Source: Eledone cirrhosa
Lineage: Eukaryota
Reading direction: 5' to 3'
Length of the DNA stretch: 64,000 bases
Assembly: GCA_964016885.1 (NCBI GenBank)
Contig: OZ024747.1
Span: forward strand, 65,224,001 to 65,288,000
In this document: piece after piece, positions 5,611 to 63,479 of the stretch
Layout of the letters: every line of letters begins with the position of its first letter
How positions within the stretch are numbered: the stretch's first letter is position 1
Notes under the pieces: generated by a model
Database searches by the model: none
What the model saw: only the letters and a program-made list of their open reading frames with translations
Told to the model about the DNA's origin: nothing
Made by a program: the position numbers and the translations under genes

Positions 5611-5617
5611 GTCGTAT

Positions 5618-6219: not shown

Positions 6220-6256
<37 letters not shown>

Positions 6257-8569: not shown

Positions 8570-8589
<20 letters not shown>

Positions 8590-8602
<13 letters not shown>

Positions 8603-9742: not shown

Positions 9743-9795
<53 letters not shown>

Positions 9796-9844
9796 CATAT
9801 ATACATACACACATATGCACATATACACACACATATGCACATAT

Positions 9845-9875
<31 letters not shown>

Positions 9876-11040
9876 ACAATTGATTTGAGCAAAGGAGTGG
9901 AAGGAATGGGGTGGTTTGAAGTGGTAAACAACAGTATATAACTAATTCAACTGAACAGATAGTTTGATTCAAGAATGAGAATAAAGAAAATTAAATAAAA
10001 CGACAACAACAACAACAACAAAACAACAACAACAATAATAATAATAATAATAATAAAATACAAATAGAATGAATATCAATTTGAATATGTAAAGAGAGAC
10101 GGTGTATAAGAATGGTATTCCAGTGATTTTGGATGGAATATCAAACACAATCTCAAACTGTTGGCAGACTTTCTATGAAGAGGAATTCTATTTAAGCCAT
10201 TCACGTGGCATGATTATCAATGAAAGTGGATTTCAAATTTCTAAAAACTGTCTAGAAAGTTATCCATTTGAAGGAAAATTACACAAAATCGTACAATATA
10301 ATATTACCGTCCATTATTTCTAAATAATTTCCTTTCCTAGCATCATTTTTTTTTTTTTTATCTTTTATTCGTTTATTTTTTTCCGTTCTTTAAATTCTCA
10401 AAATAATTCTTATTACAAAAGACTTTAATCAAATGTATTTTCTAGAGCTTTCAGACATTAGATAAAAAAAAGTTGTTGTTGCTATCGTTATTGTTGTTGT
10501 TGTCGTCGTCATTGTTGTTGTTGTTGTTTAGCCCCAGGCGAGCTACAGAAGTCTCCTCATTGGTTTTTTGGTGTTGTTGCTTTTGTTGTTGTCATCGTCA
10601 TTGTTGCTGCCATTTTTGTTGTCATTGTTGTTTAGCCCCAAGCAAGCGACAGAAGCCCCTTCACCCCCTCATTGGTTTGTTGGTGTTGTTTCTCTTGTTT
10701 TGTTGTCATTATTATTATTAGTTATTGCTGTATAGCCCCCCCCAGGAGGGCTAAAGAAATGTTCTCTTCTTGTCTCATTGACAGAGGTAATGATGCTAAT
10801 GTTATCAATTTTGTTGTTACTATTGGTGTTCTTTTGTTGTTACTATTGGTGTAGCTGTTATTATTGTTGTTTAGCCTCAGGTGTGCTATAGAGAGACCCC
10901 CCTTAGCCCATTAGTATTCCTGGCTAGCTAGTTTCTTCGCATCTACTGAAGTGCTCTTTGAAGAAAGGGTGAGAGGGAAGAAGCATCTACATCGTTGCTA
11001 GACATGCTAGAAATAGCAACCAAATCTCACTCAAATATAA

Positions 11041-11248
11041 CCCTTTAGCATTTAAACTGGATAAATGCGACCAGAATTCTCCCACTTCCTTCTGTTAAAA
11101 CCGGATGTAACCGGTCGCTAATACTGATGTTAAGGTATCGTTCTCAACATAAATAATATCAACATCTCATAGGTTCGATAATATGTGAGATAAAGCCTTT
11201 ACCATGAAAATATAATAGTAAATATAGAGTTATGTAAATGCTAAAGGG
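11041..11248. mobile_element. piggyBac-type MITE
   Basis: TIR CCCTTTAGCATTTA/TAAATGCTAAAGGG; TTAA on the right, ATAA on the left; second copy at 55848-56068. Confidence 0.8.
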
Positions 11249-11871
11249 TTAAAACACAATGAGACAATGTAGTCCCTGATATACAAAAATTAAAGGGATA
11301 ATGACAATTGAAACATTTTTATCATAGGTCTATTCAATACAGAACATTATTCTACACAGAATCCCATCTCTATGAAACAACATTTCATGAGCAAAAATGA
11401 AAATAAACAGAAGTAGAAAGTAATTAACTTTACACTGTATCAGGGAAACAGAGGACATATTAAAAACATGTAAATATAAATAAACGGAGAATTTGAATTT
11501 TAGACTGGCATAAACTAAGAGTTTAAAACACTGCTTATGTAGAAGACTACGGATAGAAGAAAAGACAAGTATTGCTTACATTCTCTCAAAATCGACAAAT
11601 CGCCTGTTGGATAGATAAATTCTGTCCTTGGGACTAGCAAGATTTATTTTATACTTGCGGGGGGGGGGGGGGGGTATGAGAGAAGGAGCAAGTATTTACA
11701 AGCAGGGAGCGAAATGCAGGAAGGTTCTAGAATAATTATTCAATAACAATACTAGAAGGTTAGTTTTTAGGAAGGGTCCAACAGCCAAACAGATTGAGAC
11801 ATATTAAAAACATGTAAATATAAATAAACGGAGAATTTGAATTTTAGACTGATATATATATATATATATAT

Positions 11872-12250
11872 TAGGTATAGGATTATCCAAGATGTAGTAA
11901 TGGTTAATTACTACACTGGATATGGTTGACGTACGGTAAGAGGTTACTCTATGAGTTATGGAAAAATTGTTCAAGAAACTTAGTTCCTGATCCTTCAGTA
12001 TTCCGGAGTGTATATAAAGAATGAATAATAACAGGTAGACATCATAAAAAGGTAATTTATTCCGTGTGCTTACAAGTGTTTCCACGGTGGTACTGCAGCC
12101 TAGTTATGCTACGTGCAAATTCACAAGTACTTGCAGAACTCGAATATCCAATGCTGTGACCACTGTTTCCTCAGAGTGGAAACACTTGTAAGCACACGGA
12201 ATAAATTTCCTTTTTATGATGTCTACCTGTTATTATTCATTCTTTATATA
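11872..12250 (-). mobile_element. Fold-back Penelope-like remnant with hammerhead motif (12069-12176, minus strand)
   Basis: Inverted arms ~12011-12085 / 12176-12250; minus strand CT-CTGAGGA-A-ACAGTGGT...ACCACCGT-G-GAAAC-ACTT-GTA-AG; flanked by (TA)n. Confidence 0.65.
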
Positions 12251-12471
12251 TATATAGGTATATTATAATAATACAAAAGACCAAAATGAACTCTGCTGGA
12301 CATCACCTGGTGGTGTTTTTGCATAGCTACGGCTTTCAAATTGTTTATTTATAAACATACCATATTCCGATAGAAATACGAAATTCCAATACATGTCTGT
12401 ATACAGCTATGTTCAAAGTTAAATTCTAATTCTATATATATAAGTTCATAAAAGTCTGATTTGGTCTTTTG

Positions 12472-12511
<40 letters not shown>

Positions 12512-12985
12512 CATATATGAATATACACAAACACATATATAATTTTATCGCAGATTAACAATGACAAAAATAAAATGTGAATCCAATCCACCTAAAATAG
12601 TGGGGAGGTTTCTCTGAAGATGTATGACAGTAACATCAAACAATATTAACTAGCTTCTATCTTTTCCAAAGAACTATATCTTCAGGCAGTAAATTGAAGG
12701 AAGGTTTCATGTTATATTTTCAGGTAGAATATCAGAATAAGTATTCTGTAGCTCTGAAGCCAGCTATCATTAATAATTCAACTGTCCTATGTATACTTTG
12801 TAAACTTCTGTTTTTATCTATTTATCTACCTATCTAGCCATCTGTCTATCTATCTATCAATCTATCTAACCATCCAACTATCCTTTATATATCACATACC
12901 TATACACCTATGCTTTGCCAGCATATATACTTTTATTCTTGCAATGGTTTTGGTCATTAGCATCCATCATCATCAATCACCTGTT

Positions 12986-13041
<56 letters not shown>

Positions 13042-13161
13042 AATATTCCAACCCTTAGTGCCAAGGAAAATGGTTGTTAAATGGTGATGATGTTTTATAT
13101 AATATATATCATCATCATCACCATTTTATATCCATTTTTCCATGCTAGCATGAGTTAGATG

Positions 13162-13217
<56 letters not shown>

Positions 13218-13247
13218 TTATGATTTAACATCCGATATCCCCTAAAT

Positions 13248-13990
13248 ATACAGTGTGGTGTAGATAAATCCGGAAAAAAATTAATGGATAATAAAAACAG
13301 CATCTTTTATATAACAAATAAATAAATTTCAATGAAACTTTATACACTGTTAGGCACATATATGAGGTACAAAAATCCTTCAATCTGGTCACTATCGGCC
13401 GCCACCACTTTCTGCAGGTAGGACCAGAAGCTGGAGCAGGCCTTGGTGACCACATCTCTGTCCATGTTGGCCTTGGCGTCCCTGATGGCTGCCTTGAGAG
13501 CTTCCTCGGTGTTGTAGGGTCTACTATTCACCTTCCTCTCCAAGACATCCTACCCAAAATAGTCAACAAGATTACAGTCAGGCAATGAGGGGGGGGGGGG
13601 CATAAGTCGAGTGACCAGTAGTACGACACATTGGCAAAGAGCCAGGCCTAGGTGTCCTGGCCTTGTGGGCAGGGGCAGAGTCCTGTTGAAAGATGCAGGA
13701 CCTCACATTAGCCACCCTGTCCATTCAGGGCTTGAGAGAGACTATCAGGGATGAACCTAGGCATCCTGGTGGCACCAGAGTGCTTCTTATGAGTCTTGCA
13801 TTCTGGCCTGAAATTGTCCTTGTTGTCTGAGGCCCCATATACTTTAGCAAAGTCTTAGCCCTTCGTTTTAGGATATTAAAACCATTCAATGATTTCCTTC
13901 ATTTTGATGCAAAAGCTCTCCACAACAGCAGCTTGACAATTGTATTCTGAAGACATGTCGATTACTATGCACCTTATGCATCAATTGCCA
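13248..13990 (-). mobile_element. Decayed Tc1/mariner-superfamily transposase (DD37D/maT-like) with one TIR
   Basis: Minus-strand IFQQDSAPAHKA, (S)PDCNLVDY, ERKVNSRPYNTEEALKAAI...KACSSF; TA-CAGTGTGGTG terminus at 13248. Confidence 0.8.
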
Positions 13991-14019
13991 GACAGCTACT
14001 GGGATTGGAAAAGTTTTAT

Positions 14020-14270
14020 ATTATTAACTCTATGATTGGCACTCTTATTATCAATTTACCCTCAACATCTACTACGTACAAAGTCTTCCATTCCTATCAG
14101 TTTGCCTGTTATCCCACTACACATCTTGTGTATCCAAGATTTGTATTGTGTACACAATATAGAGTTTATGCCTACAGTTTTTCTACATATCAAGCAAGGC
14201 CACTTCTCTGGGGAGATTGGTGCCTTGACTTCTTTCTTAAATTGATATTGTTTTTTACTAAAATTTACAC
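14020..14270 (-). mobile_element. RTE LINE internal fragment (Cys-rich region)
   Basis: KWPCLICRKTVGINSILCTQYKSWIHKMCSGI is homologous to the 17234 ORF. Confidence 0.8.
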
Positions 14271-14277
14271 ACATATA

Positions 14278-14333
<56 letters not shown>

Positions 14334-14334
14334 A

Positions 14335-15438
14335 TAGTTTCTTCCGATTTTTCCGTGGCAATACCATGTTTGTTTGTTTACTTGTCTCGCTCACTTTACG
14401 CTATATTACTTGTCCCAATAGCTTTATTTAGCTATTGCTCGCACCAACTGGAGGTATATGATTTTTAAAGCGATGAAATACCAATGAATGTTTGAAAATC
14501 ACTGATGAAGGACTAATTTTAATCACATGTAACCCATGTGCAACCACGCAGCACTCAATTCTTCTCATATTTATATATATATATTTTTCCTCAGCTGCGT
14601 TTGTCTGTTTCTTACTACTTCCCCCCTCTCTCTGTATCTCTCACCTTCTTTCGCCCCCTCTGTCAGTCACACTTTCTCTCGACTGGCCTCTTCTTCGCAC
14701 TTCCACTCACTCACTCTCTGCTTCTCCCCCTCTCACTTCCTCCCGTTTGGCCTGTGTGGGGTCCTTTCTCACTCAGACCTCACCCACGTCGGATGGTCTG
14801 TATATCTCTCTCGCCCATGAAATTCACCAAGCTTAAGCTGAATAGATATCATGTGCTTGTTTCTTCCTATCTTTCCGTGGCAATACCATGTTTGTTTGTT
14901 TATTTGTCTCGCTCGCTTTACGCTATATTACTTGTCCCAATAGCTTTATTTAGCTATTGCTCGCACCAACTAGAGGTATATGATTTTTAAAGCGATGAAA
15001 TACCAATGAAAGTTAGAAAATCACTGATGTAGGGCTAATTTTATTCATATGTAACCCATGTGCAACCACGCCGCACTCAATTCTTCTCATATTTATATAT
15101 ATATATTCACCGAATTCACAGACTAGATTCCTTCTTCCCCCCGTTAGACCTGTACAGAATTCCTTCCTTGCTCACATTCCAACCAGGTTTGATGGTCTTT
15201 ATTCTCTCTCGTTCACGATTTCACCGAACTTATATTCATGGAAATTTGGGACTTGACTCGTTCTTCCTCACTTTTCGTTGCTTCACCATTTTTGTTTGTT
15301 TACACTCTCGTATCCCCTTTATTTACGTGTCCCAACGACTTTTTTTAGCCGTTGCTCGCACCAACCGGAGGTATATGGTCTTTAAAGCAATGAAATACCA
15401 ATGATGGTTGGAAGATCACTGATGAAGGACTAACTTTA

Positions 15439-15445
<7 letters not shown>
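14335..15445. repeat. Three partial tandem copies of a ~240-bp unit containing a half hammerhead core
   Basis: Copies at ~14335-14575, ~14857-15097 and diverged ~15290-15445; CTGATGAAGGACTA at 14502 and 15418. Confidence 0.75.
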
Positions 15446-15478
<33 letters not shown>

Positions 15479-15481
15479 TAT

Positions 15482-15681
15482 ATTGTTAAACTTTGGAAGG
15501 GTGATGCTGCCAATAAAAACACATGCACCTGTGGGTTTTCACTTCAATTTATTATAAATTACAGGTTGGTTGGTTTTTATTGTTTTTTTTATTTGCAGCA
15601 TGACCCTCCCAAAGTATAACAATATCTGTTTCAGCACATGTTTTCAGATAAGAAATCTTGCAAAACAAATTCAAAGATGAA

Positions 15682-15685
<4 letters not shown>
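15482..15685. mobile_element. Short fold-back element in (TA)n; related pieces at ~5990-6155 and ~16365-16400
   Basis: TGTTAAACTTTGGAAGGGTGATGCTGCCAATAAAA versus TTTATTTGCAGCATGACCCTCCCAAAGTATAACA inverted arms plus tail. Confidence 0.55.
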
Positions 15686-15729
<44 letters not shown>

Positions 15730-15733
<4 letters not shown>

Positions 15734-16335
15734 TCATCATCATCATCATCATCAGGTTTAGCGTCCGTGTTCCACGCTTGCATGGGTTTGGACGGGGCTT
15801 TTCCCACTTGAGGCAAGAGTGGTTGTCTTGCTCGCATAGGACTGTCTGGCGGGTTTTCTACAGTTGGATGCCCTTCCTAACACCAACCACATTTACAGTG
15901 TGGGGCTGGGAGGTTTTTACCGTGTTGCCTACACAGCCACATTACAGCGTGGACTGTCTGGCGGGTTTTCTACAGCTGGATGCCCTTCCTAACACCAACC
16001 ACATTTACAGTGTGGGGCTGGGAGGTTTTTACCGTGTTGCCTACACGGCCACATTTACAGCGTGGACTGTGTGTTTTTTGTCGTGACACCTACACGATCT
16101 CATTTGTTTCGGCCTGGATGTTGTGGGACCAACATAACTTTACATTGAAAGGGGCGGTGTGGGTGGGGTGGAGGTGGTGGGACGGGGGTGTGTTTTGATA
16201 GAGATGCCTACTGACTGTAGTAGGTTTTTACTTTGTATTTAGGTAAGGCGGGTCTTCTCTATTACTGAGTACCGCCAAAGGTCTCGGTCCAGTGACATTG
16301 TCTTGGAGAGGTGTAAGCGTATGAGGTCGGAATTT
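15730..16335 (-). mobile_element. RTE LINE 3' end (last codons plus 3' UTR with internal duplication)
   Basis: Matches 51878-52370; encodes LHLSKTMSLDRDLWRYSVIEKT; (ATC)n tail. Confidence 0.85.
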
Positions 16336-16829
16336 ATATATATATATATATTTACTGAAATGATTTGGGAGAGTCATGCTGCTAATAAAAACACATGCAC
16401 AGTTGAAGCCAGCCACTTCAGTTATATTATTAATTAGGCAACTAATCGATTCCTTAGTTAGTTTAGTAACAAGATAATTATTCAATTCTCATATTTAATT
16501 GTTAAAACTCATTCATCACACATTCTGTGACTGTCATATCGACTATTTTTGCTCTTCTGTATCTCTTCTTTGTTTAGATTTTGTTCTATTTATTCCAATT
16601 TGTCTTTCAGAAAGACAAGCAATCTCACTAGCCATATGAAAATGTCAGACACTAGTGTCTCAGGATTCTCATCCATCATCAGTGATGTTTTTTCACTCAA
16701 TACTATGACAAGTAAAAGCTCTAGCTTAAATAATTTTTGTATATAAAACAGCTGATGGACATATTCATTTGTATATTGTGAGCTTGTATGTATGTTTGTG
16801 CGTATGTATGTGTGTGTGCATGGATGGAT

Positions 16830-16865
<36 letters not shown>

Positions 16866-17079
16866 GGAGGCTTAGTAAAATCGAATCTTTGGTGGTGTGC
16901 AAGCAAATTCGACCTACGATATGAATGAGTTAGCAAAGCACTCAACAAGGGTAGGTCCTTAGAGTAATAACATACGTTTAAATAACTTGACAAATTGAAC
17001 ATTGTAGCAGGCAAAATCTAACACACAATACCAAAGTAATGAAAGAACTAACAGGTTGAAAAAAAATATATATATATAT

Positions 17080-18475
17080 TTAGGAATTTAGCGTACAGGT
17101 TGGGGTCCACCAGGGCTCTGTTCTTAGCCCTCTCCTGTTCATCATAGTCCTGCAGGCAATAACGGAGGAGTTTAAGACCGGATTCCCATGGGAACTCCTG
17201 TATGCTGATGACCTCGCACTCATAGCTGAATCTATGGTAGAACTAGAGAATAAATTCCAAACCTGGAAGCAGGGACTAGAGAGAAAGGGTCTCAAAGTCA
17301 ACATGACAAAGACTAAGGTCCTTGTAAGTAGACGAGAAAACAGAACCCAGATCCCCTCAGGGAAATGGCCTTGCTCAGTATGTAGGAAAGGTGTAGGTAG
17401 GAACTCCATTCTCTGCCCCAAATGCAAACAATGGGTACACAAGAGATGTAGCGGGATCTCAGGAAGCTTAATTAAGAATGTAGGATTCACATGCAGCAGC
17501 TGTGCTGAAACAGCAAGCAGCAAACAGCCACAGGAAACAAGTACCACCAATCTCTGGGAGGGCCCTGTAGAAACAGTAGACAGCTTCTGCTACCTAGGTG
17601 ACCGAATTAGCAACGGAGGTGGGTGTTCAGAAAGTACAATAACTAGGGTAAGAACGGGATGGAAGAAGTTTAGGGAACTACTACCACTGCTAGCTGCAAA
17701 AGGCTTCTCCCTCAGAATGAAAGGCAGACTGTATGATGCGTGTATCCGAACAGCGATGTTGCATGGTAGTGAGACCTGGGCGCTGAAGGTGGAAGACTTA
17801 CGTAGATTAGAGAGAAACGAAGCCTGCATGCTCCGATGGATGTGTAACAGTAATATACGTGAACGACAAAGCATAAATGAATTGAGAGAGAGACTGAGCA
17901 TAAGAGGAATCAAATGCTGTGTGCAGGAGAGGCGGTTTCGCTGGTATGGACATGTGATGTGTATGAAGGATGACAGCTGCATAAAAAGGTGCAGAGCACT
18001 AGAAGTTGATGGAAACCACGGAGTGGGGAGACCCAAGATGACCTGGGATGAGGTGATAAAAGCCGACCTTACCCAACTACACCTCTCAAAGACAATGACA
18101 CACGACCGTGACTTCTGGCGTCACGCAGTAATACAGCGTACCCGACCTCCCATGGGTACATGCTGAAGCATATAAACAATATGTCCCCACACACCCCACC
18201 GCAAGGTGGTCGTGGAGGTGCCACGGCAAAAAAGCACCCAGCCCACACTGTAAAGTGGACGTGTAGGCGCCACGAAAAAGCACCCAGCACTCACTGTAAA
18301 TGAGGTTGGTGTTAGGAAGGGCATCCAGCTGTAGAAATCAAGCCAGATCAGTTCCTGTATGAGCAAGGCATGGTCAGCCGACCAGACACTGCACACAACA
18401 GGACAACCCGTCTAACCCATGCTAGCGTGGAAGAACGGACGTAAAACAGTGATGATGATGATGATGATGATGATA
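17080..18475 (+). mobile_element. 5'-truncated young RTE LINE: RT C-half (QGSVLSPLLF, YADD), Cys/His-rich insertion, C-terminal domain, 3' UTR, (GAT)n tail
   Basis: Open frame from ~17084 to the stop at 18166; YLGD, MLHGSETW, RRFRWYGHV motifs; both flanks read TATATATATTT. Confidence 0.95.
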
Positions 18476-21140: not shown

Positions 21141-23149
21141 TATAATATACTCTAACGCATATGTTGAGTACTCTTTTCCATGCTTGTTGACAAACTGCTA
21201 CATTTGAATATATACAATACACACACACATATGTCCACACAATATAATGTGGGTTACTTGAGTCTTTGTTTCTATTTGCTTTTCCTATTCCTGTCTTTCT
21301 CTCTATCTTTCCAAAGAACTTAACCTTCAAACGTCAAAGAACTTTCCATTTCCATTTCCAGAATGTCAACTTAATGAGTACGCGTTTACGTCGTCTTTTG
21401 TCTGCTTTCCTTGTTACACATTTTTACCTATATAAGCATGTATGTGCATGTGTGTATATTTACACACAGAGACACAAACACACACACAGACACACACCGA
21501 CACACAAATACACACACACTCACAAACACAGATACACACACACACACAGACACAAACAGAAACACACACACACAAAAAAACACACATACACACACACACG
21601 CGCACACACACACACACACACAAACCCAAACGATAGTCTTTCAAACACTATCTTCTCTAATTAGGTGGCATGAATCAGTTTTGCAATGAGTTTGAAAAGT
21701 CAGTTTAGAGTTGTTTCTTTAGAATAATTCTGTGTTTGGGTATTACTTGGTACAGAGAATTTCAAATCAAACAATTATATATTTGCCTCATTTTTCATCT
21801 AAAATTAAATGTCAGTTGAATCTTATTTCCTGCTTGGTGATATGATAAGTTAATTTTTTACTCCAGCTATTGTTCTTTCTATATTTTACTTATACAGAGT
21901 GAGTAATAAGTAAGTAGGAAGTCAATGTATTTTTATTGCAATGTATTTTTATTGCAAGAATCACAGATAATGTTTTGAACTTCTGCTTATTTCTGTGTGA
22001 TCAGCATATTTTTAACTACCTTTTTTTGATATATTTATAATTTCATTATATAAATATATGACCAGAATTTTAGTAAATATTATCATTTGGAATATAAATG
22101 TTGCACTTCCCTGTTACTTATGACTCATGTTACCTATAGATTCTCCTATAGTTTACATGATAGCTGCGACTCAATTTTGAGTAATGCTATCGCTTGATAC
22201 TTAAGCATGAACATCACAGACATAGCTTTATAGTGCTTCTAGGGACTTGCCTATGGCCAGCAATGTCATGCATCACAAAAAATGTCACATATCAAGCAAT
22301 GTCTGTGCTTGAAGCTTTTTTAAGTGAGGAAAGGCTTTGCACAGATTCAATCCCACTCTCTGAAGCTTGTTTGGTGAGGAGGGTGGTTTTCGACACACTG
22401 CAGGATGAAAAACAAGACCCATCAAAGGGCAGAGGAACTCAGGAGCGTCAACAGCCATCCAATAAAGACTTTACATATAAACTGTCATATCTTTTGACTA
22501 TCCTTTATCTATAAATTTTACATATATTTCACCTATAGATTCTCCTACATTTTACCCATTTTTACCAATATATTGTATATATAGACTGTCAAATATAATA
22601 CCTATATTTTTGCTATATATTTTATATAATAGAGTGACATATATTTTACCTATTTCCACTTAGTATATTTCACAAATGGAAATACCAAATTAAAAATATT
22701 GTTGTTACATTATTTTTGCTGGCTTAACATATGTGCCTGTGGTATTTGTAAGGAATTCTTCGGAAATATTGATGACCAACAAAGTTACATAAAACACAAA
22801 TGAAATAATGGTACGTGTTCTTGCATTTGATAAATTTGACCACCTTCATATAAAAATCAGAAATTTTATTTACTGACAATTTTATATACATGAACATTCA
22901 GTTGATATAAAACTGTGAAGCACAAAACTCAGAAGGCAAACGTCACGGACCAACAAATATAAATTCAGTTTTAAAGCCCACTCTTGGATCACCCCCACCC
23001 TCACTGAACAAGTTACATGTAAGCCAACTGTTGCTCTGTCTCTCTTCTTACACCCCTATGCTCAGCACAGCCTTCCTCCCCGACTAGCCAGTTCAAGGAC
23101 AAAATGAGTGCCCAAATATCATAATTAGGAAGTACTCATGACATAACAT

Positions 23150-25945
23150 GCAACCAGCCTATGTTGCAAAGTGGTAGTGTTGAGAGCACAACAAAAAGGA
23201 CCCAATCCACCCTGTAAAGTGGTAGTACTAGTACCACAACAAATAGCATGAAGTCCACCCTGTAAAGTGATAGTGCTGGTACCACAACAAATAGCATGAA
23301 GTCCACCCTGTAAAGTGGTAGTGCTGGTACCACAACAAATAGCATGAAGTCCACCCTTTAAAGTGATAGTGCTGGTACCACAACAAATAGCATGAAGTCC
23401 ACCCTGTAAAGTGGTAGTACTAGTACCACAACAAATAGCATGAAGTTCACCCTGTAAAGTGGTAGTACTAGTACCACAACAAATAGCATGAAGTCCACCC
23501 TGTAAAGTGATAGTGCTGGTACCACAACAAATAGCATGAAGTCCACCCTGTAAAGTGGTAGTGCTGGTACCACAACAAATAGCATGAAGTCCACCCTTTA
23601 AAGTGATAGTGCTGGTACCACAACAAATAGCATGAAGTCCACCCTGTAAATTGGTAGTACTAGTACCACAACAAATAGCATGAAGTTCACCCTGTAAAGT
23701 GGTAGTACTAGTACCACAACAAATAGCATGAAGTCCACCCTGTAAAGTGGTAGTGCTGGTACCACAACAAATAGCATGAAGTCCACCCTGTAAAGTGGTA
23801 GTACTAGTACCACAACAAATAGCATGAAGTCCACCCTGTAAAGTGATAGTGCTAGTACCACAACAAATAGCATGAAGTCCACCCTGTAAAGTGGTAGTAC
23901 TAGTACCACAACAAATAGCATGAAGTCCACCCTGTAAAGTGGTAGTACTAGTACCACAACAAATAGCATGAAGTCCACCCTTTAAAGTGATAGTGCTGGT
24001 ACCACAACAAATAGCATGAAGTCCACCCTGTAAAGTGGTAGTACTAGTACCACAACAAATAGCATGAAGTCCACCCTGTAAAGTGGTAGTACTAGTACCA
24101 CAACAAATAGCATGAAGTTCACCCTGTAAAGTGGTAGTACTAGTACCACAACAAATAGCATGAAGTCCACCCTTTAAAGTGATAGTGCTGGTACCACAAC
24201 AAATAGCATGAAGTCCACCCTGTAAAGTGGTAGTACTAGTACCACAACAAATAGCATGAAGTCCACCCTGTAAAGTGGTAGTACTAGTACCACAACAAAT
24301 AGCATGAAGTTCACCCTGTAAAGTGGTAGTACTAGTACCACAACAAATAGCATGAAGTCCACCCTGTAAAGTGGTAGTACTAGTAGCACAACAAATAGCA
24401 TGAAGTCCACCCTGTAAAGTGATAGTGCTGGTACCACAACAAATAGCATGAAGTCCACCCTGTAAAGTGGTAGTACTAGTACCACAACAAATAGCATGAA
24501 GTCCACCCTGTAAAGTGATAGTGCTGGTACCACAACAAATAGCATGAAGTCCACCCTGTAAAGTGGTAGTACTAGTACCACAACAAATAGCATGAAGTCC
24601 ACCCTGTAAAGTGATAGTGCTAGTACCACAACAAATAGCATGAAGTCCACCCTGTAAAGTGGTAGTACTAGTACCACAACAAATAGCATGAAGTCCACCC
24701 TGTAAAGTGGTAGTACTAGTACCACAACAAATAGCATGAAGTCCACCCTTTAAAGTGATAGTGCTGGTACCACAACAAATAGCATGAAGTCCACCCTGTA
24801 AAGTGGTAGTACTAGTACCACAACAAATAGCATGAAGTCCACCCTGTAAAGTGGTAGTACTAGTACCACAACAAATAGCATGAAGTTCACCCTGTAAAGT
24901 GGTAGTACTAGTACCACAACAAATAGCATGAAGTCCACCCTTTAAAGTGATAGTGCTGGTACCACAACAAATAGCATGAAGTCCACCCTGTAAAGTGGTA
25001 GTACTAATACCACAACAAATAGCATGAAGTCCACCCTGTAAAGTGGTAGTACTAGTACCACAACAAATAGCATGAAGTTCACCCTGTAAAGTGGTAGTAC
25101 TAGTACCACAACAAATAGCATGAAGTCCACCCTGTAAAGTGGTAGTACTAGTACCACAACAAATAGCATGAAGTCCACCCTGTAAAGTGGTAGTACTAGT
25201 ACCACAACAAATAGCATGAAGTCCACCCTTTAAAGTAATAGTGCTGGTACCACAACAAATAGCATGAAGTCCACCCTGTAAAGTGGTAGTACTAGTACCA
25301 CAACAAATAGCATGAAGTCCACCCTGTAAAGTGGTAGTACTAGTACCACAACAAATAGCATGAAGTCCACCCTTTAAAGTGATAGTGCTGGTACCACAAC
25401 AAATAGCATGAAGTTCACCCTGTAAAGTGATAGTGCTGGTACCACAACAAATAGCATGCAGTCCACCCTGTAAAGTGGTAGTACTGGTACCACAACAAAT
25501 AGCATGAAGTCCACCCTGTAAAGTGATAGTGCTGGTACCACAACAAATAGCATGAAGTTCACCCTGTAAAGTGATAGTGCTGGTACCACAACAAATAGCA
25601 TGAAGTCCACCCTGTAAAGTGGTAGTACTAGTACCACAACAAATAGCATGAAGTCCACCCTGTAAAGTGGTAGTACTGGTACCACAACAAATAGCATGAA
25701 GTCCACCCTGTAAAGTGGTAGTACTGGTACCACAACAAATAGCATGAAGTCCACCCTGTAAAGTGGTAGTACTGGTACCACAACAAATAGCATGAAGTCC
25801 ACCCTGTAAAGTGGTAGTACTGGTACCACAACAAATAGCATGAAGTCCACCCTGTAAAGTGGTAGTACTGGTACCACAACAAATAGCATGAAGTCCACCC
25901 TGTAAAGTGACAGTGCTGGTGCCATGAAAAAATCTACCAGTACTC
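23150..25945. repeat. 48-bp minisatellite (~58 units) grown inside a SINE/RTE 3' region
   Basis: Unit CCACCCTGTAAAGTGGTAGTACTAGTACCACAACAAATAGCATGAAGT; continues into GGAAGGGAATCC...GATGAT tail at 25945-26090. Confidence 0.95.
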
Positions 25946-27518
25946 ACTGTAAATTGATGATTTTAGGAAGGGAATCCAAATGCAGAAAACCAAGCCAAAA
26001 TTGGAACATATCAACAAGATGCGATTACTTGACCTTGTCTAACCAATGCAAGTATGGAAAATAAACATTAAACAGTGGTGATGATAATGATATTGTTGAT
26101 GTATGTTAGGACACAATATATATATATAATTAATCGTACATTCTATAAGATACATATAAATTTACTTTAAACAGATTTAGATTTTAGATTGTCTTTTAGT
26201 TTATCTGAAAATGATTAGTGAACTACTTGGTCTTATGAAGCTTGCTGATATGGACCCCTGTGGTCCACTTATACCCCTAGACCACTAGTGATAGACCTAG
26301 ATGACTTGTGATCCCTCTAGACCACCAGTGGTCCACCTAGACCACCAGTGGTCCACCTAGAACACAATGTACATTACTGATACAAGACACCTTATATGGA
26401 GATATAAGTTCAAAATGAGAACTGTTACTGCTTCTTTCCAGTCCTCTAACCGATAATGAGACCCAATGCTATGATTCATAGTTTAACTATCTCACCATAC
26501 ACACTTGAATCAATATAGTTGCTTGATATGTTAACAATAGCAACTAAATTTCCCTCAATCATACACACAACAAGCTTCCTAAATCTTTATCTTTTGTATT
26601 CATGTCTGACTGTAAGTGTTTTTTTTTAAAGGACGATGATGATGATGATGATGATAGTCATCATGATGACTATAATGTAGTTGCTTATGATGATGATGAG
26701 GATAATCATCATCATGGCAATGATGTAGTTGCTGATGATGATGATGATGATGATGGCAATAATTGAAATTGTTGCTCCTGTTTGGTGTCAACAATGATTT
26801 TTAGGACAATCCTAATACTAACACCTGCTACTTCAGTTGATATATATCATAACCCCCCCCCCCCCGCACGCTATTTATCCCCCACATCTACCAATACCAC
26901 CACCACCACCACCACCACCTTTCATATAGTGTTGTTAATGTTATACAGAATTGCTGGTTCCCACACCCACTCCCACTTCCCAACAACACTGACACCAACG
27001 CCATCTACATTGTTGTTAATGTCATACAGAAATTAGAATAGACTTCTACAAAATAATAATAATTAATTAGAAGAAGAAGAAGAAGAAGAAGAAGAAGGGG
27101 GGAGGAGGAGAAGAAGAAGAAGTATTTTCTTATTTTCTTCCTTTCTTTATCTTTAGTTGTCAAAGAGTTGACAACTTACACAACAGTGCAATGTATAAGG
27201 AATAAATGAAATGTTTCCTAAAATATATTCGCAATAATCTAAACTTTACACACAAAGAAAACATTAATTTATGACTGAAATTCAAAGAACTATCTGGAAG
27301 TATATTTTTATGTTCCATCATACAAAACAAAAAACATTCTAAGGCCATTTCCCCAGTAAAAATCAGAGGTTAGCTATGTGATGGAGGGATGCTGACGATG
27401 ACGTGAAACCTTGGAGAATGGACTAATTGTATTGTGTTGTTTATTACATAATTAAATAGCTCTGTACTATACATAGAGCACTCTTCTTTCGTATCCCTTC
27501 TCTATGGAAATACTTAAT

Positions 27519-33387: not shown

Positions 33388-34140
33388 TATGGAATAGAAT
33401 GAAACGAAATTTCATTTTTCACTCTTAGTACGGCACTTACTTAAATGTAAGTATGTATGTATGTATACGTACATACATATATGTATACAGACGTACAGTA
33501 GTATGTATATATATACATGCACACATATATATACATGCACACATATATATACATGCACACATATATATACATGCACACATATATATATATGCACGTATCG
33601 GTTTACCGAACATTTATTATAATGCTCGGTTTGTTTGTTTGTAAACAAACAAACAGCAAAGAGTGAGAAATGAAATTTCGTTTCATTCTATTCCATTTAT
33701 CGTTTTCGGTGTGCCCGGCCGACTGAAATCCCTCGATATGCAAATTAGGCTGCTCAGCTGTTAATATGCATAAGGAAAGTATATATTTTCAGACGTTCAA
33801 CCATCTGGCAGGAACGTATATGATGCTGACGATAGCTAATAAGCTTGAAACTAGTACATTGTTCCTGTGTCAGTGTTGAACAAAAAGGTGACGTGGTTGC
33901 CTAAACACTGTACGGTGTAATTCGGGCTGTTTGTTTGTTTACAAACACACCGAGCATTATAATAAATGTTCGGTAAACCGATACATGCATATATATATGT
34001 GTGCATGTATGTATATATATATATACATACTACTGTACATCTGTATACATATATGTATGTACGTATACATACATACATACTTACATTTAAGTAACTGCCG
34101 TACTAAGAGTGAGAAATGAAATTTCGTTTCATTCTATTCC

Positions 34141-34142
<2 letters not shown>
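33388..34142. mobile_element. Fold-back element in (TA)n with internal hammerhead; related fragment at ~58125-58320
   Basis: Inverted arms ~33388-33657 / ~33926-34142; extra terminal copy at 33660-33696. Confidence 0.75.
33821..33861 (+). ncRNA. Minimal type I hammerhead ribozyme motif
   Basis: TGATG-CTGACGA-T-AGCT-AATA-AGCT-T-GAAAC-TA-GTA-CATTG; palindromic ACTAGT stem III, GUA site. Confidence 0.75.
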
Positions 34143-38217: not shown

Positions 38218-38256
<39 letters not shown>

Positions 38257-38349
38257 ATGTATGTAAAAGGTAAACAGAAATAACAACACAATCGGTACAG
38301 TATATGGAAGGGATATATTAGGTTAACGCTTAATATAGCAGGAAAAGGG

Positions 38350-38385
38350 TCTTAACGTTTCGGACGCTAGTCCTTCATCAGAAGA
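38350..38385 (-). ncRNA. Minimal type I hammerhead motif
   Basis: Minus strand TCTT-CTGATGA-A-GGAC-TAGC-GTCC-GAAACGTT-AAGA; palindromic ACGT. Confidence 0.7.
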
Positions 38386-38606
38386 AAGAATGAGAAATAA
38401 GATCGATTGAGGGGGCGGGCAGGTTGGAATTGGAAAAAATGTCTTTAGATAAAAATAACAGGTCCATTCATGTTGACATCTCTTGTTTACAAGAAATCGT
38501 TTACGAATAAGAAAACAGATATGGGTTGGTGAAGAAGTTATTACAGCTCAAAACATGAGATTTATTACAGTTAACTACTCAGAAGGCTACATTTTCAATG
38601 TAATTC

Positions 38607-50034: not shown

Positions 50035-51700
50035 GTATCATCACCATTTTACGTCTGCTTTTCCCTGCTTGCAAGGGTGGGATGGGAACTGATTCTGGCT
50101 TGATTTCTACAGCTGGATGCCCTACCTAACACCAACCTCATTTACAGTGAGTGCTGGGTGCTTTTTTTCTGTGGTGCCTACATGTCCACTTTACAGTGTG
50201 GGTTGGGTGCTTTTTTGCCGTGGCATCTCCACGACCACTTTGCAGTGGGAGGGTGTGGGGGCATATTGTCTATATGCTTCAGCTTGTACCCATGAGAGGT
50301 TGGGTACTCTGTATTACTGCGTGACACCAGAGGTCACGGTCATGTCATCGCCTTTGAGAGGTGTAATTGGGTAAGGTCGGCTTTTAACACCTCATCCCAG
50401 GTCTTCTTGGGTCTCCCCACTCCGCGGTTTCCATTGACTTCTAGTGCTCTGCACCTTTTTATGCAGCTGTCATCCTTCATACACATCACATGTCCATACC
50501 AACGCAACCACCTCTCCTGCACACAGCATTTGATTCCTCTTATGCTCAGTCTCTCTCTTAATTCCTTTATGCTTTACCGTTTGCGTATATTACTATTACA
50601 CATCCATCGGACCATGCAGGCTTCGTTTCTTTCTAATCTACGTAAGTCTTCCACCTTCAGTGCCCAGGTCTCATTGCTGTTCGTATACACACATCATACA
50701 GACTGCCTTTCATTTTGAGGGAAAAGCCTTTTGCAGCTAGCAGTGGCAGTAGTTCCCTGAACTTCTTCCATCCCGTTCTTACCCTAGTTATTGTACTTTC
50801 TGAACACCCACCTCCGCTGCTAATTCGGTCACCTAGGTACTGTTTCTACAGAGCCCTCCCAGAGATTGGTGGTACTTGTTTCCTGTGGCTGTTTGCTGCT
50901 TGCTGTCCCAGCACAGCTGCTACATGTGAAGCCTACATTCTTAATTAAGCTTCCTGAGATCTCTTGTGTACCCATTGTTTGCATTTGGGGCAGAGAATTG
51001 AGTTCCTACCTACACCTTTCCTACATACTGAGCAAGGCCATTTCCCTGAGGGGATCTTGGTTCTGTTTTCTAGTCTACTTACAAGGACCTTAGTCTTTGT
51101 CAGGTTAAATTTGAGAACATTTATTTCTAGTCCCTGCTTCCAAGTTTGGAATTTCTTCTCTAGTTCTATCATAGATTCAGCTATAAGTGCGATGTCATCT
51201 GCATACAGGAGTTCCCATGGGCATCCGGGCTTAAACTGCTCCGTTATTGCCTGCAGGACTATGATGAAAGGAGAGGGCTAAGAACAGAGCCCTAGTGGAC
51301 ACCAACCTGTACGTTAAATTCCTCGCTATACTCATTGCTAATCCTAACTTTGCTGACTGCTCCCCTATACATGGCTTGTACAGCTTTCAAAAGCCATTCA
51401 TCTACTCCTAGTTTTCTAAGAGCCCACCAGATTACAGCACGTGGAACTCTGTCAAAGGCTTTCTCGAGATCGACAAATGCCAGGTAGAGTGGCTTACTTT
51501 TAGATAGGTACTTTTCCTGTAACTGCCCACAAGGAAGAGGGTATCAGTGGTGCCTCTTCCTGGTACAAACCCAAATTGCATCTCATCTAGTTTCACCCAG
51601 TCCTAATCAACTGTGCTATAACTCTTTCTGTTATTTTCATGACCTGGTCCATCAGCTTTATACCTCTATAGTTTCCTCTATCTAGTGCACATCACCTTTA
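50035..51700 (-). mobile_element. Frameshifted RTE LINE (RT to 3' UTR), same family as 17080-18475
   Basis: QFGFVPGRGTTD, FVDLEKAFDRV, YADD, WPCSVCRKGVGRNSILC, LRWYGHV. Confidence 0.95.
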
Positions 51701-52714: not shown

Positions 52715-53975
52715 TCATCATCATTTTATGTGCACTTTTCCTTGCTTGCAAGGTTGGGACAGGTCCCCTTCAGCATCTCTCCATTTGTCACAGTCCTTCG
52801 TCATCACCACTGTGAGCCTCAGCGATCTGAGGTCAGCTCTCACCACCTCCACCCATGTTTTTCGTGGTCTTCCTCTACTGCATCTTCCTTCCACTGGGAT
52901 TTCTCCTGCACACTACAGTTTATTCCTCTTATACACAGTTTCACTCCCAACTCATCCATGCTTGGTCGTTCATGCACATTGACATTGCACATCCATTGGA
53001 GCATGCTTGCTTCATTTCTCTTCATCCTTCGCATATCCTCCGTAGTTGCTACCCATGTCTCACTACCATCTCTCACAGGCCTCATACAACCGACCTTTCG
53101 TAGGGAGAAACCCTTCGTTGTTAACAGAGGAACCAGCTCCCTAAACTTCTTCCATCCTGTCCTTATTATAGATACTATGGCCTTGGTGCACCCTCCTCCC
53201 TTGCTAATCTGATCACCTAGATATCAACCACCTCTATAGATCCTACCTGCATTTGAAAAATGTGCCTATCACTGACACTTCTACTATCAATTTTTGCTGA
53301 ACATCTACTATAATTTTCCTTTCCTGTTAGTTTGCCTGCTATCCCACTACACCTCTTGTGTACCCAAGATCTGCATTGTGTACATTCTATAGAGTTTATG
53401 CCAACTCCTTTTCTACATATCGAATGGAATCAGAGTCTTGACCTCTTTCCTACTTATCAATATTTTAGTCTTTGCTAGGTTCATTCTCAGTCCCCTTGAT
53501 TCCAACTGCTGTTTCCGCTGGAATTTATTCTCTAGCTCTTCTACTGATTCTGCTATAAGTACCAGATCATCATCATAGAGAAGTTCCCATGGGCAGCCCA
53601 TCTTAAACTCCTCTGTTATGGCTTGGAGAACTATAATGAACAAGAGCGGGCTAAGGACCAAACCCTGATGAACGCCTACTTGTATCTGGAATTCCTCACT
53701 AAACTCCATTTCTACTCATTTTACTGACAGCTCCTCTGTACATAGCTTGCACTGTCATCACAAGCCATTCCTCTACACCTAGTTTCCTTAGTGACTACTA
53801 GATGACAGATCAGGGTACTCTATCAAAGGCCTTCGCTTGGTCAACAAAAGCTAAATATAGTGGCTTATTCTTCTCTAAGAACCTCTCTTGTAGTTGTCTC
53901 ACTAGAAGAGGGTATCTATTGTACTTTTTCCAGGCACAAACCAAACTGCATCTCATGTATTCTATTATTCTATTG
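52715..53975 (-). mobile_element. Older RTE LINE fragment (RT to 3' end)
   Basis: LVRQLQERFLEKNKPLYLAFVDQAKAFDRVP, GVHQGLVLSPLLF, LLYDDD, GSETW. Confidence 0.9.
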
Positions 53976-57820: not shown

Positions 57821-58315
57821 ACACAGACACACACACACACACATATATATATGCATATAGACATACATAATGGTGCTTTTCATTATGTCACCAACACGGC
57901 TATTTTACAGGGTGTACTTGATGCTTTTTGTCATGTCACCAACAGGACCACCTTGCAGAATGGAATGGGTGCTTATCTGTTGTGCCAACAATATGACCAC
58001 TTTACAGAGTAGACTGGGTGTTCTTTTGTCATATCATCAGCATGAGAACCTTACATGGAGAATTAGGGGCTTTTTTATTGCCACCATATATATCATATAT
58101 ACCATATATACGCCATATATATATACAAACACACCGATCATTATAATAAATGTTCGGTGAATCCATACGTACATATATATATATGTGTGGATGTATGTAT
58201 ATATATATACATACTACTGTACGTCTGTATACATATATGTATGTACGTATACATACTTATATTTAAGTAACAGCCGTACTAAGAGTGAGAAATGAAATTT
58301 GTTTCATTTTTTCCG

Positions 58316-58367
<52 letters not shown>

Positions 58368-60110: not shown

Positions 60111-60447
60111 TATCATTTAACCTTCAGCATGCTGAAAATGTTTCATGAATTGCTTTCCATGACACTGTGTATTAAGGGGAGATTACTCCATTGTCACAAT
60201 TTGTTTCTGCCAGCATGTTGAAAACTGATAATCCTTTCACTGTAACCCTTATCAGTCCAGTTCCCTATTGTCATTCTTATTTCTTATTTTTCATTTTATC
60301 TCCAGTCTATTCCTTGTCTCAACATCCATTACTTGTATTCTAACATACACCAATATACATATATATATCTTCAAAATAGGAATTCTTGTTCATTGTTTCT
60401 GATGAGAATAGTGAGATGGCTCTACTGTGCATACACACGCACACACT

Positions 60448-60497
<50 letters not shown>

Positions 60498-60541
60498 AAG
60501 ATCGAAATTAAGAGTATTCCGCAGTTCACTGTAATAATAAT

Positions 60542-60733
60542 TGTTTCTACGTTAGGCACAAGGCCAGCAATTACTCCAGTGTATTACTGGTACTTTATTT
60601 TATCGACCCCCGTAAGGATGAAAGGTAAAGTGAACCTCGGCGGGATTTGAACTCAGACCGTAAAGAGTCGTAACTCTATGCCGTAAAGCATGGCGTCCGA
60701 CCCTCTACCGATACTACCAATCCACCGCCCTTA
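60542..60733 (-). mobile_element. Full-length Deu/Nin-domain SINE with 20-bp TSD
   Basis: TSD CAGTTCACTGTAATAATAAT at 60522-60541 and 60734-60753. Confidence 0.9.
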
Positions 60734-60808
60734 CAGTTCACTGTAATAATAATAATAGTATTAGATCAAAGAAGAATAGAGAATTTTCTTCTGAGCTCAA
60801 ATGCAAAT

Positions 60809-61277
60809 ATATTACACAAAGAGAAGTGTGTTACTTAACGAGCTCCAAATTGTTGAGCTAATAAATTCGAATGGTTGGGCTGCCCTCTCTAGCATTTTCC
60901 CCAATCCACGAGAGCCGTTATTTGATGCAAATAACACGTGATTTCGCCCTACTCTGGGCAGTGTGTATATTAGCTTTCTCTCTATCCATGAGGTTAGATG
61001 TGTCATGAACAGTGTCCACATTTGCTGACTGAGGATCCTGTGACCTGTTATACTGCACATATCGGTGGTGAAACGAAGCGAGATTCGTATCAGCAAACTT
61101 ATAGTTATAAGCTTGGTAATTTAAAACTCTAATTCAGAGATTTGATTCTGACTTAGTTTTTTTCTATTTAATTGCTAAACCTGTAGATATTGTTCTCTAT
61201 ACAGTAACGGTAAAACTCATTTGTAATAATTCTTTACACACCTCTCACTGTGTAACACACTTCTCTTTGTGTAATAT
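60809..61277 (+). mobile_element. ~470-bp element with 26-bp terminal inverted repeats and an internal hammerhead
   Basis: ATATTACACAAAGAGAAGTGTGTTAC / GTAACACACTTCTCTTTGTGTAATAT. Confidence 0.75.
61021..61097 (+). ncRNA. Complete type I hammerhead ribozyme motif
   Basis: Stem I TTTGCTGA/TCAGCAAA (8 bp), CTGAGGA 61029-61035, stem II CC-TGTG/CACA-GG with U.U closure, GAAAC 61070-61074, stem III ACGAA/TTCGT, GUA site at 61087-61089. Confidence 0.8.
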
Positions 61278-61287
61278 ATATATATAT

Positions 61288-61800
61288 AGGTGTCATGACA
61301 AAAAGCACCCACCCCACATTATTATAAATGTGGTTGGTGTTAAGAAGGGCATCCAACCATAAATACCAAGCCAGAAACAGTTCTGTATGAGCAAGACATG
61401 GTCACTTGACCTGACTTGCCTCAACGAAACAACCCATTTAGCCCATGGTAGTGTGGAAAAATAGATGTTAAACGATGATGATGATGATGATGGAATATAT
61501 ATATATATATATATATATATATCTTTTTTCTTTTTTAAGCCAGAAGGCTCATTTGGTCAGTGCTTATCCTGGTTTCATGGCGTGAAGTGACTGAGAGTAC
61601 AAGATTTCGCCCTGGACAGGATGCCAGTCCATCACAGGGTTAAACCCCCAGCTATTGCTGGTACTCATTTTCAGCTGAGTGTACTGGAGCAACATGAAAT
61701 GAAGTGTTTTCCTCAAGAACACGACACGCAACCCAGAAATCAAACCCACGACATTATGATCATAAGTCCAACACCCTTACCACTAGGCTATGTGCCTCCA
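61288..61800. mobile_element. SINE tail (+, 61288-61492) and CORE-type SINE (-, ~61560-61800)
   Basis: AAGGGCATCCAACCATA...(GAT)n; GAAATGAAGTGTTTTCCTCAAGAACACGAC. Confidence 0.7.
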
Positions 61801-62764
61801 CACACACACACATATATATATATATATGCTAGCGTGGAAGATGGACGTTAAACGATGACGATGATGATATACACACAGAGTGGAACCTCAGTTACTGAAC
61901 ACATCCATTATTTCATGTCTCAGTATTTGTGCACTTTTGGGAGTGAAAATATGTCTTGGAAATCATACATCTCCTCGGTTATTGCCGCTGCGTAACTTCC
62001 CCAGGCCAAGTTCCCACATGAAGCATCAGACGTGTGCATGGCCCAGTCTGCCTCTGTCTCTCTCACTAAGTGAGCAACTCTCCTAGCACTAGTCCAAAAA
62101 TGTTTGCTTTAAATAGAGTTTTTGTGGGGTTAGGGGAAGTTATGTACATACATAGATATATACATATATATATACACACATACATATATAGACACATATA
62201 TATGCATATATACGCATGCTGTATTGATACTTGAGTTATTTTATTATAAAAAAATTGTGTCAAGAATAAAACAAGAGGCTACATCATTGTAAGTTTTACA
62301 TTTTAGAGGGAATTATGTTTGATTCCAAATAAATCTTGAAAGATACAGAAACAGTTAAGTGGTTTTTGTTGATGTATTTTTGTTTTGTCTAATATTTCAT
62401 GTCTAATTTAACCTATTTCATCTGATTCTTCATTGTTTACTGCTTGAAAGATAAAGAAGAAGTAAAACAACTACAGACTGTTTTTTAACCATATTTTACA
62501 TCATGATTTACAAAGCAATATTCTATGATTTGTGATTAATTGCATCTAAAAATAATGATGTATTTTATTACAGCAACAATTTCTCCAAAACATAATAAAA
62601 TATACACAACTTGACAGGAAAATTGCTGACTCCGGTATTATAGTTTCTTTGTCATTTAGTTTCAATTTGGTTTTCTGTATCTCACATTAAATTTCTTCTG
62701 ATGTACTGAAGGAAGATTTGTCAGACATTGTGTCTGCTAGAGAGAAGGAGTCACTGAGTAAAAC

Positions 62765-63140
62765 ATTGCTAGGTCATATGTCCCTGCTAGGTCATATGTC
62801 ACCGTGAGGTCATGTGTCAGTGCTAGATCATATGTCACTGCTAGGTCATATGTCACTGCTAGGTTATATGTTATTGCTAGGTCATATGTCATTGCTAGGT
62901 CATATGTTACCATTAGGTCATATGTCACCATTAGGTCATATGTTACTGCTAGGTCATATGTCACTGCTAGGTCATATGTTACCAGTAGGGGGGGGGGGGG
63001 GGGGGCATATACCACTGCTAGGTCATATGTCATTGCTAGGTCATATGTCACTAGGTCATATGTCACTGCTAGTCACATGTTATCACATGGGTTCATGTCA
63101 TTGCTAGGTCATATGGCATTACTAGGTCATATGCACTAGG
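62765..63140. repeat. 18-bp minisatellite
   Basis: Unit TGCTAGGTCATATGTCAC, interrupted by poly-G. Confidence 0.9.
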
Positions 63141-63479
63141 CCATATACCACTGTTGGACATCCATCAGCTTCAACAAGTGTTCCAGTCGTCTGATCAATG
63201 CTGCAGCTTGCTTGTGCAAGTGGCTGAGCATTCCTCACACATGCGTTCTCAGGGAGATTCAGTGTGACACAGTGTGTGACATGGCTGTTTCTTTGAATCA
63301 CAGACACAACTCATTTTGACCAACTGAATGAACTGACTCAATATGAAATAAATTGTCTTACATGCCACTCATAATTGAACTCATTACCTTATGATTGTGA
63401 GTGAAACACACTAAACCTAAGCCACATATATCTTCACTGTTAGGTTATACATCACTGTAAAGTCATGTTTTACAATGAG

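Follow-up and report, generated by a model that had tools for sequence, protein, structure and literature searches.

The locus and its components

The window is the whole stretch of 64,000 nucleotides of Eledone cirrhosa DNA analyzed here (contig OZ024747.1), an AT-rich animal sequence with many (TA)n tracts and retroelement fragments, whose repeats appear similar to those of octopus. One composite insertion in it lies between two microsatellites (Table 1), and its order is (TA)n-[C,B inverted]-A-B-(TA)n; that is, a body (A) is followed by a short segment (B), and is preceded by a second, inverted copy of B which is prolonged outward by a tail (C). The inverted repeat formed by the two copies of B is perfect over 28 bp, its outer five bases being ATATA. 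With the SINE-like insert set aside, C comprises 99 bp and adjoins the left (TA)n tract, and the inverted arm as a whole amounts to 127 bp of family sequence, split by the insert. The tail is found at one end only (C on the left arm, none on the right), both ends of the insertion lie in (TA)n, both end points carry TATA-like bases, and the junction of the arms shows no palindrome beyond their 3-base overlap.

An earlier reading of this DNA (the sequence-only reading) had delimited the element at 60809-61277 and described it as bounded by 26-bp perfect terminal inverted repeats. The repeat is indeed perfect; it is, however, 28 bp long and not terminal, as the element reaches about 310 bp further left, to ~60496, and the proposed bounds were too narrow to hold the whole inverted arm with its SINE-like insert. 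The latter (192 bp) recurs in the window as three further, nearly complete copies (87-90% alike) and landed in the tail after the insertion of the element; from a B-box-like motif we take it to be a putative SINE, probably lying on the strand given in Table 1.

The proximal tail (60734-60806, minus strand) also contains a pyrimidine-rich stretch, CTAAT at 60764 and CAG at 60743, candidate features that resemble the 3' end of an intron, and six GT(A/G)A words occur upstream of them in A and B; Penelope-like elements (PLEs) are described as keeping introns near their repeats. At the B/C border (60806), two-base insertions (AT or GT) are present in 11-24 reads per run, i.e., a TA-like run within the unit varies in length.

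Table 1. Features of the insertion (positions are those of the window).
Feature	Position	Strand	Basis
(TA)n microsatellite, left side of target	60451-60495		sequence
Distal part of segment C (tail); outer end = site 2, second 3' end point	60496-60541	-	loose ends of raw reads and contigs
SINE-like repeat, ~190 bp, later insert into C	60542-60733	-	window copies; flanking 20-bp repeat
Perfect 20-bp target duplication flanking the SINE-like insert	60522-60541 and 60734-60753		sequence
Proximal part of segment C (tail), found after B in many copies	60754-60806	-	raw-read depth
Inverted copy of segment B (left terminal repeat of the sequence-only reading)	60807-60834	-	sequence, reads
3-base overlap TAC joining inverted and direct arms	60832-60834		attachment points of loose ends from other copies (60832, 60835)
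Segment A, unit body, 418 bp, no recognisable ORF	60834-61251	+	family depth, ORF searches
Type I hammerhead motif	61021-61097	+	sequence; variants in contigs
Segment B (right terminal repeat of the sequence-only reading); end = site 1, first 3' end point	61252-61279	+	sequence, reads
(TA)n microsatellite on the right of the target, sharing bases with the ATATAT end of B	61274-61288		sequence

Other copies in public reads

Eight of nine public runs (X1-X9, X4 being left out) were used for other copies; the search for runs containing the sequence listed none of RNA. X1 and X2 provide contigs of one sample and X7-X9 raw DNA reads, the X1 and X2 contigs being compared over 60745-61320 and the raw reads over 60745-60915. 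X1 and X2 gave 1189 and 1224 contigs on the former interval, and the family is high-copy, bearing in mind that summed contig depths do not equal copy numbers; X5 and X6, from other organisms, gave 1 and 6 contigs, enough only for the presence of related sequence.

Raw-read depth in X7, X8 and X9 falls from 194, 154 and 139 at 60829-60834 to 9, 7 and 4 at 60835-60840, so that 95-97% of the depth is lost on crossing the inner edge of the left repeat. In X3 the contig depth at the body start is 10%, and at the left flank 41%, of that over the repeat. Past 60834, 180 of 323, 143 of 230 and 131 of 218 reads continue as the reverse complement of 61222-61251 and not as the body; these are the ordinary right ends of other copies. 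Outward, reads run through 60806-60750 at 80-85% of the repeat depth (125-185 versus 149-218 over B), proportions in these reads being biased by a reduced-representation library whose reads end at AATT in C. The left flank is conserved family sequence up to AATT at 60506, loose ends of 27, 19 and 18 raw reads beyond 60747 match 60506-60531, and 21, 19 and 19 reads (X7-X9) pass from B into (TA)n. Because the depth collapses at its inner edge and its outer flank is conserved family sequence, the left repeat is not a terminus.

The length of the inverted arm also varies, since in another copy, seen in X1 and X2, the inverted arm measures at least 110 bp and has its joint at 60993/61157, compared with 28 bp plus the tail here. 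Variable repeat length had been put forward as the mark of a Penelope-type inversion, and the same sequence-only reading had considered the left repeat a possible inverted copy of the 3' end made during such an integration; the longer arm in the other copy, together with a left flank made of family sequence, supports that idea. Contig depth climbs toward the 3' end: it is 1,800-3,300 over the hammerhead, 12,000-18,000 at 61105-61224 and 40,000-77,000 at 61225-61284.

Three further signals were set aside. A step in contig depth near 61085 might have been taken for 5' ends set by cleavage, but the loose ends there belong to divergent hammerhead-bearing subfamilies; read ends at 60782/60785 are not an end of the element, as they fall on an AATT word with a loose-end agreement of ~0.4, i.e., a library cut site; and a joint 60839/61221 in one X2 contig, readable in two ways, was not counted as a second inversion.

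Repeat unit and coding capacity

Loose ends before the body start (60832 or 60835) occur in 2 X1 contigs, 3 X2 contigs and two sets of X3 contigs (2 and 3). The sets that agree best, that of X2 and the larger one of X3, correspond to 60490-60521 in reverse complement, the end of C. In one X3 contig of 196 nt, 60772-60834 is read on one strand and the 49 letters that begin at 60835 on the opposite one; the 63 letters separating C-B from A are unaligned, where this locus would predict 64-65. C leads into A in other copies, and the unit is therefore a head-to-tail A-B-C of 545 bp (418 + 28 + 99), with a GC content of 36% and one hammerhead; the link from C to A comes from some ten short contigs, all of the one sample S1. 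Over C, the contigs are deeper (7,300-14,700) than at the start of A (2,600-6,900), and part of the C copies may continue with something else, for example an ORF. Arrays of two complete units did not appear, the locus holding one hammerhead and the contigs being too short for arrays. Folded as a circle, the unit has a predicted energy of -125.9 kcal/mol, compared with -106.3 ± 5.8 for its shuffles, none of which (0/100) was as low.

The open frame in A, at 60834-60938, has 35 residues, and the family majority has a stop at 60909. It matched no Pfam family; as a possible end of a GIY-YIG domain it was rejected, its two matches among 1.84 billion (E 2e-4 and 6e-4) being internally repeated proteins and attributable to chance, and none of eight candidates among longer proteins proved a relative. 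ORF, Pfam and protein searches of the element revealed no reverse transcriptase plus GIY-YIG ORF. The element shows no protein-coding capacity and is not an autonomous PLE.

The hammerhead motif

The motif has the order of a type I hammerhead (CUGANGA, GAAA, NUH). Stem I (61021-61028/61090-61097) consists of eight Watson-Crick pairs, the core of CTGAGGA (61029-61035) and GAAA (61070-61073), and stem III (61073-61077/61084-61088) of five pairs closed by a 6-nt loop; the GUA site occupies 61087-61089, with cutting predicted after A61089. All of these had been described in the sequence-only reading and are found in the sequence. The same reading called the motif the best-formed hammerhead, which holds in that this is the single site in the whole window, on both strands, with a stem I of at least 8 and a stem III of at least 5 pairs (none of 100 dinucleotide shuffles gives one), but which omitted a weak stem II and a favoured inactive fold. 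The stem II region (61036-61069) lacks the 10.1-11.1 pair of helix II, usually G-C, and has instead U61036·U61069 in this copy and in most of the contig depth; beyond it come two C-G pairs and internal loops, for a total of -2.9 kcal/mol. Rfam gave no hammerhead match at the gathering score (0 matches in the whole window), and at E≤10 over 60400-61500 it gave 16 matches, 15 of them on the TA tract and none to a hammerhead. In metagenome scans the inverted repeat had no matches, and the only match to the stem III pattern (L001) was dismissed as chance, consisting of 25 bases with neither the upstream core nor further similarity.

In the X1/X2 contigs (one sample), 9 of the 77 positions of the motif vary at ≥5%, none of them among the 13 core positions (P=0.17, not significant by itself). 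Core plus stems I and III contain 2 variable positions of 37, and the rest 7 of 40 (P=0.10), a comparison that reaches P=0.009 only when the terminal pair of stem I is set aside post hoc; T>C at 61021 and A>G at 61097 would preserve that outer pair if carried by the same molecule. Divergent copies, seen as loose ends before 61081, retain both strands of stem III with an altered loop. The majority base at 61036 is U, while an A, which would pair with U61069, makes up ~15% (X1) and 11% (X2) of the contig depth and is also present in the one X6 contig. One X2 contig skips 71 bases within 61011-61083, i.e., most of the hammerhead, and is thus a family copy without the ribozyme.

Unconstrained, the motif is predicted to fold as a rod with both core strands buried in it (-23.4 kcal/mol), against -14.0 for the fold constrained to the hammerhead, the inactive fold being thus predicted 9.4 kcal/mol more stable. 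Stem I is predicted to form in all four sequence contexts, with pair probabilities of 0.00-0.16 for stem III, and an A at 61036 would shrink the gap from 9.4 to 2.6 kcal/mol. Because stem II opens with U·U and the inactive fold is the more stable one, cleavage of the monomer by this copy, which the sequence-only reading had thought possible, is doubtful, and its cutting activity is predicted to be weak; these folding models score neither the non-canonical contacts of the core nor co-transcriptional folding, and their results are to be read as a caution, not as a disproof. In the published accounts, an axolotl retrozyme hammerhead with U·U at the same place cleaved 22% as a monomer in one hour (PMC7229834), and eight of nine Xenopus retrozyme dimers did not cleave (bioRxiv 10.64898/2026.07.22.740005).

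Whatever the family does, the hammerhead of this copy might be a dead or silenced relic, a reading to which we would give even weight for and against. The U·U at the base of stem II with a proximal helix of 2 bp, the favoured inactive fold, the low probability of stem III in the four contexts, and the relief that the A of other copies brings to the predicted gap are all in its favor. On the other hand, U is the majority base at 61036, the axolotl hammerhead cleaved in spite of its U·U, and the models are blind to the contacts mentioned above.

Origin of the insertion

The locus is probably one insertion of a non-coding, hammerhead-bearing 545-bp repeat, likely a non-autonomous element of retrozyme type moved by a Penelope-like enzyme. 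The anatomy, the high copy number, the order of the unit, its two end points and the variable inversion are observed in the sequence and the reads. Against it, the tail (99 bp) is longer than the published 30-40 bp, there is one hammerhead at the locus, with no two-unit array in the contigs, and no autonomous PLE sharing its ends was found in the sequence and reads covered.

As to the events themselves, we infer a PLE reverse transcriptase-endonuclease, an RNA template, priming on one template and cleavage, which would have acted as follows. The enzyme, provided in trans, would cut the (TA)n tract and extend both DNA ends on an RNA of more than unit length or on a circle. A first cDNA would start at the end of B (site 1) and copy B and A, and a second one at the end of C (site 2) and copy C and B, giving the inverted arm with its tail; the long cDNA would stop where the second had begun, both would join at the 3-base overlap, and the SINE-like repeat would land later in the tail. 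Multimeric transcripts would be processed to unit length by the hammerhead, with the cut after A61089, but for this copy an inactive fold is predicted to prevail.

The arms sum to 573 bases, i.e., one unit of 545 plus 28, and the direct arm starts within 3 bases of site 2, where the inverted arm begins. That the direct arm stops so close to the start of the inverted one suggests two primings on one RNA, and we put the chance that the arms were made in this way at near one half. Since the stretch that was copied spans the predicted cut site and includes B two times, its template would have been either a circle or a multimer left uncut; these two forms are indistinguishable from this locus. Some points speak against a single template: one locus is concerned, the family need not stop at site 2 (its other clear junction, 60993, lies ~158 bases away), and in a second, unrelated element of the window (33390-34141, described below) both arms end at the same site, unlike sites 1 and 2 here.

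Several properties of PLEs agree with these steps in the published descriptions. PLE insertions often contain an inverted 5'-truncated copy beside a direct one, favour (TA)n targets and have their tail on a single side (PMC8557442, PMC3846280); in Anolis, both strands of the target are cut and extended by the PLE protein, and two internal start sites of reverse transcription bound the tail (PMC11167929); and retrozymes have been proposed as non-autonomous PLE derivatives (bioRxiv 10.64898/2026.07.22.740005). On the other side, insertion by the Anolis PLE in vitro did not require hammerhead cleavage (PMC11167929), and the Xenopus dimers mentioned above mostly failed to cleave.

Other explanations differ in what they predict for the ends. 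A true DNA-transposon MITE with fixed terminal inverted repeats of 26-28 bp and a TA target duplication, carrying the hammerhead by chance, would account for the perfect 28-bp repeat, the TA at both ends, the length of ~470 bp, the lack of an ORF and the high copy number. It predicts about equal read continuation into the body from both ends, while at the left at most 9 of ~194 reads enter it; it predicts unrelated outer flanks, while on the left some 100 bp of conserved family sequence adjoin the repeat; the body start is preceded in other copies by C, and not by the inverted repeat; and the arm of at least 110 bp in another copy indicates that the repeats are not fixed. The MITE is refuted as far as these reads go and is extremely improbable; the MITE carrying a ribozyme considered in the sequence-only reading is not supported. 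The fragment of an autonomous PLE, 5'-truncated to pseudo-LTR and tail and with the short tandem unit as a minority deletion form, would agree with the published PLE layout (PMC8557442), with a contig depth rising toward the 3' end and with the intron-end-like motifs in C. We regard it as improbable: among the loose ends listed before the body start, the well-agreeing ones are C, which closes the unit at 545 bp, and the 35-residue frame is without a credible relative and interrupted by a stop in the family majority.

More serious is the case in which the element is the same and the inversion arose otherwise, by self-priming or template jumping on an antisense template, or from two cDNAs made on two RNAs; we find this quite possible, with chances somewhat short of even. 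An origin of head-to-head PLE inversions by antisense self-priming was suggested in PMC3846280, the common end site of both arms in 33390-34141 fits it, as does the distance of the other family junction from site 2. It would leave to coincidence that the direct arm begins at most 3 bases from the start of the inverted one, with a chance of ~1 in 100 for a 545-bp unit (an estimate made post hoc on one locus), and the junction has no palindrome beyond the overlap. Returning to the retrozyme-type insertion, a more specific, joint version of it would make the locus the smallest trace left by twin priming on a single, circular retrozyme RNA, and its hammerhead a conserved one whose 5-bp helix III allows it to cut as a monomer, silenced by the rod fold, with one U/A difference at 10.1 separating silent from active lineages; all of this together seems to us rather unlikely.

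The case bears on the way in which inverted copies of PLEs arise and on the mobility of animal retrozymes. Insertions such as this one resemble MITEs and would be filed as DNA transposons; a conserved flank outside the repeat, a variable arm length and a one-ended tail separate the PLE type from them. A locus of near-unit length with its direct arm ending at the second start site would be a compact data point for one-template twin priming, and the natural U/A variants at the base of stem II offer a cheap basis for a comparison of cleavage.

Comparison with known systems

The closest likeness is with metazoan non-LTR retrozymes, described as short, non-coding, head-to-tail units of high copy number with one type I hammerhead, features shared here together with the GC content of 36% (PMC7229834; 10.64898/2026.07.22.740005). 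The predicted circle, self-paired, would be another shared feature. The 545-bp unit lies within the range of 51-972 bp of Li, Clavereau and Pollet 2026 (10.64898/2026.07.22.740005) and exceeds the 150-450 bp given by Cervera and de la Peña 2020 (PMC7229834). The locus differs in holding 1.05 units with an inverted arm, the word "inverted" being absent from the main text of PMC7229834.

With the endonuclease-bearing PLEs of (TA)n targets, Neptune, Hydra and Naiad, as described by Craig et al. 2021 (PMC8557442) and Arkhipova et al. 2013 (PMC3846280), the locus shares the inverted 5'-truncated copy, the tail at one end, a (TA)n target without readable duplication, a hammerhead near the 3' end and an overlap at the head-to-head junction, whereas it has no reverse transcriptase or GIY-YIG ORF and a tail of 99 instead of 30-40 bp. 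Poseidon PAc of Anolis (Frangieh et al. 2024, PMC11167929) similarly has two internal 3' end points bounding the tail and an AT-rich target, and its extension of both strands in vitro would fit, by analogy, the two-arm extension proposed here; PAc is autonomous and primes without homology to the target, while both end points of the present unit carry TATA-like bases able to pair with (TA)n. The hammerheads with a large helix III in fungal and protist PLEs (Cervera and de la Peña 2014, PMC4209133) share the type I topology, no obvious contact between loops I and II, and a stable helix III allowing a monomer fold; the animal host, the weak helix II and the dominant predicted inactive fold distinguish the present motif. 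Its stem III of 5 bp compares with the 1-2 bp usual in metazoan hammerheads (PMC4209133), and a 5-bp helix III in an animal host is the one mildly unusual trait; the hammerhead catalogues of PMC8557442 and PMC4209133 may hold similar animal motifs.

Searches for hammerheads with MITEs, for Penelope twin priming and for cephalopod or octopus retrozymes, covering titles and the starts of abstracts with most subscription papers and supplements outside their scope, returned no report of this family or of one-template twin priming by PLEs; the family is new, while the kind of element is known and constitutes no new class. In LINE-1 twin priming, the 5' part is inverted, the junction lies at the second priming site and a short overlap is found. 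The present case would differ in the class of the enzyme, in its fixed start sites and in its tandem or circular template.

Other features of the window

A second, unrelated hammerhead element occupies 33390-34141, with its core at 33826 (+), U·U at the base of stem II as well and a palindromic stem III. Its architecture is the same as that of the 60496-61279 locus: an inverted arm (33390-33657) is followed by a direct arm from 33659 which opens with a 37-42-bp repeat of its own 3' end, the unit being ~446 bp and both ends lying in (TA)n. A 3'-only copy of this family, 88% alike over 194 bases, is found at 58126-58317 and also ends in (TA)n. Two minus-strand copies of a family with minimal hammerheads (3993-4137 and 38256-38399, 84% over 145 bp) have their cores at 4119 and 38381 and a palindromic ACGT stem III, each running into a TA-type microsatellite. 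Hammerhead-like motifs are also present at 3846-3930 (+), with a CTGAGGA core, a stem II region of 58 nt, a palindromic stem III and a 7-bp stem I, just downstream of a 34-bp palindrome (3798-3831), and at 55645 (-), a minimal form with a TTGATGA core and a 6-bp stem I. Besides, three open frames (17084-18166, 50945-51277 and 52840-53715) are presumably fragments of non-LTR reverse transcriptases, judging by their general likeness, and tandem minisatellites occur at 23125-25962 (48 bases) and 62729-63150 (18 bases), the former reading as a 945-residue open frame of repeats.
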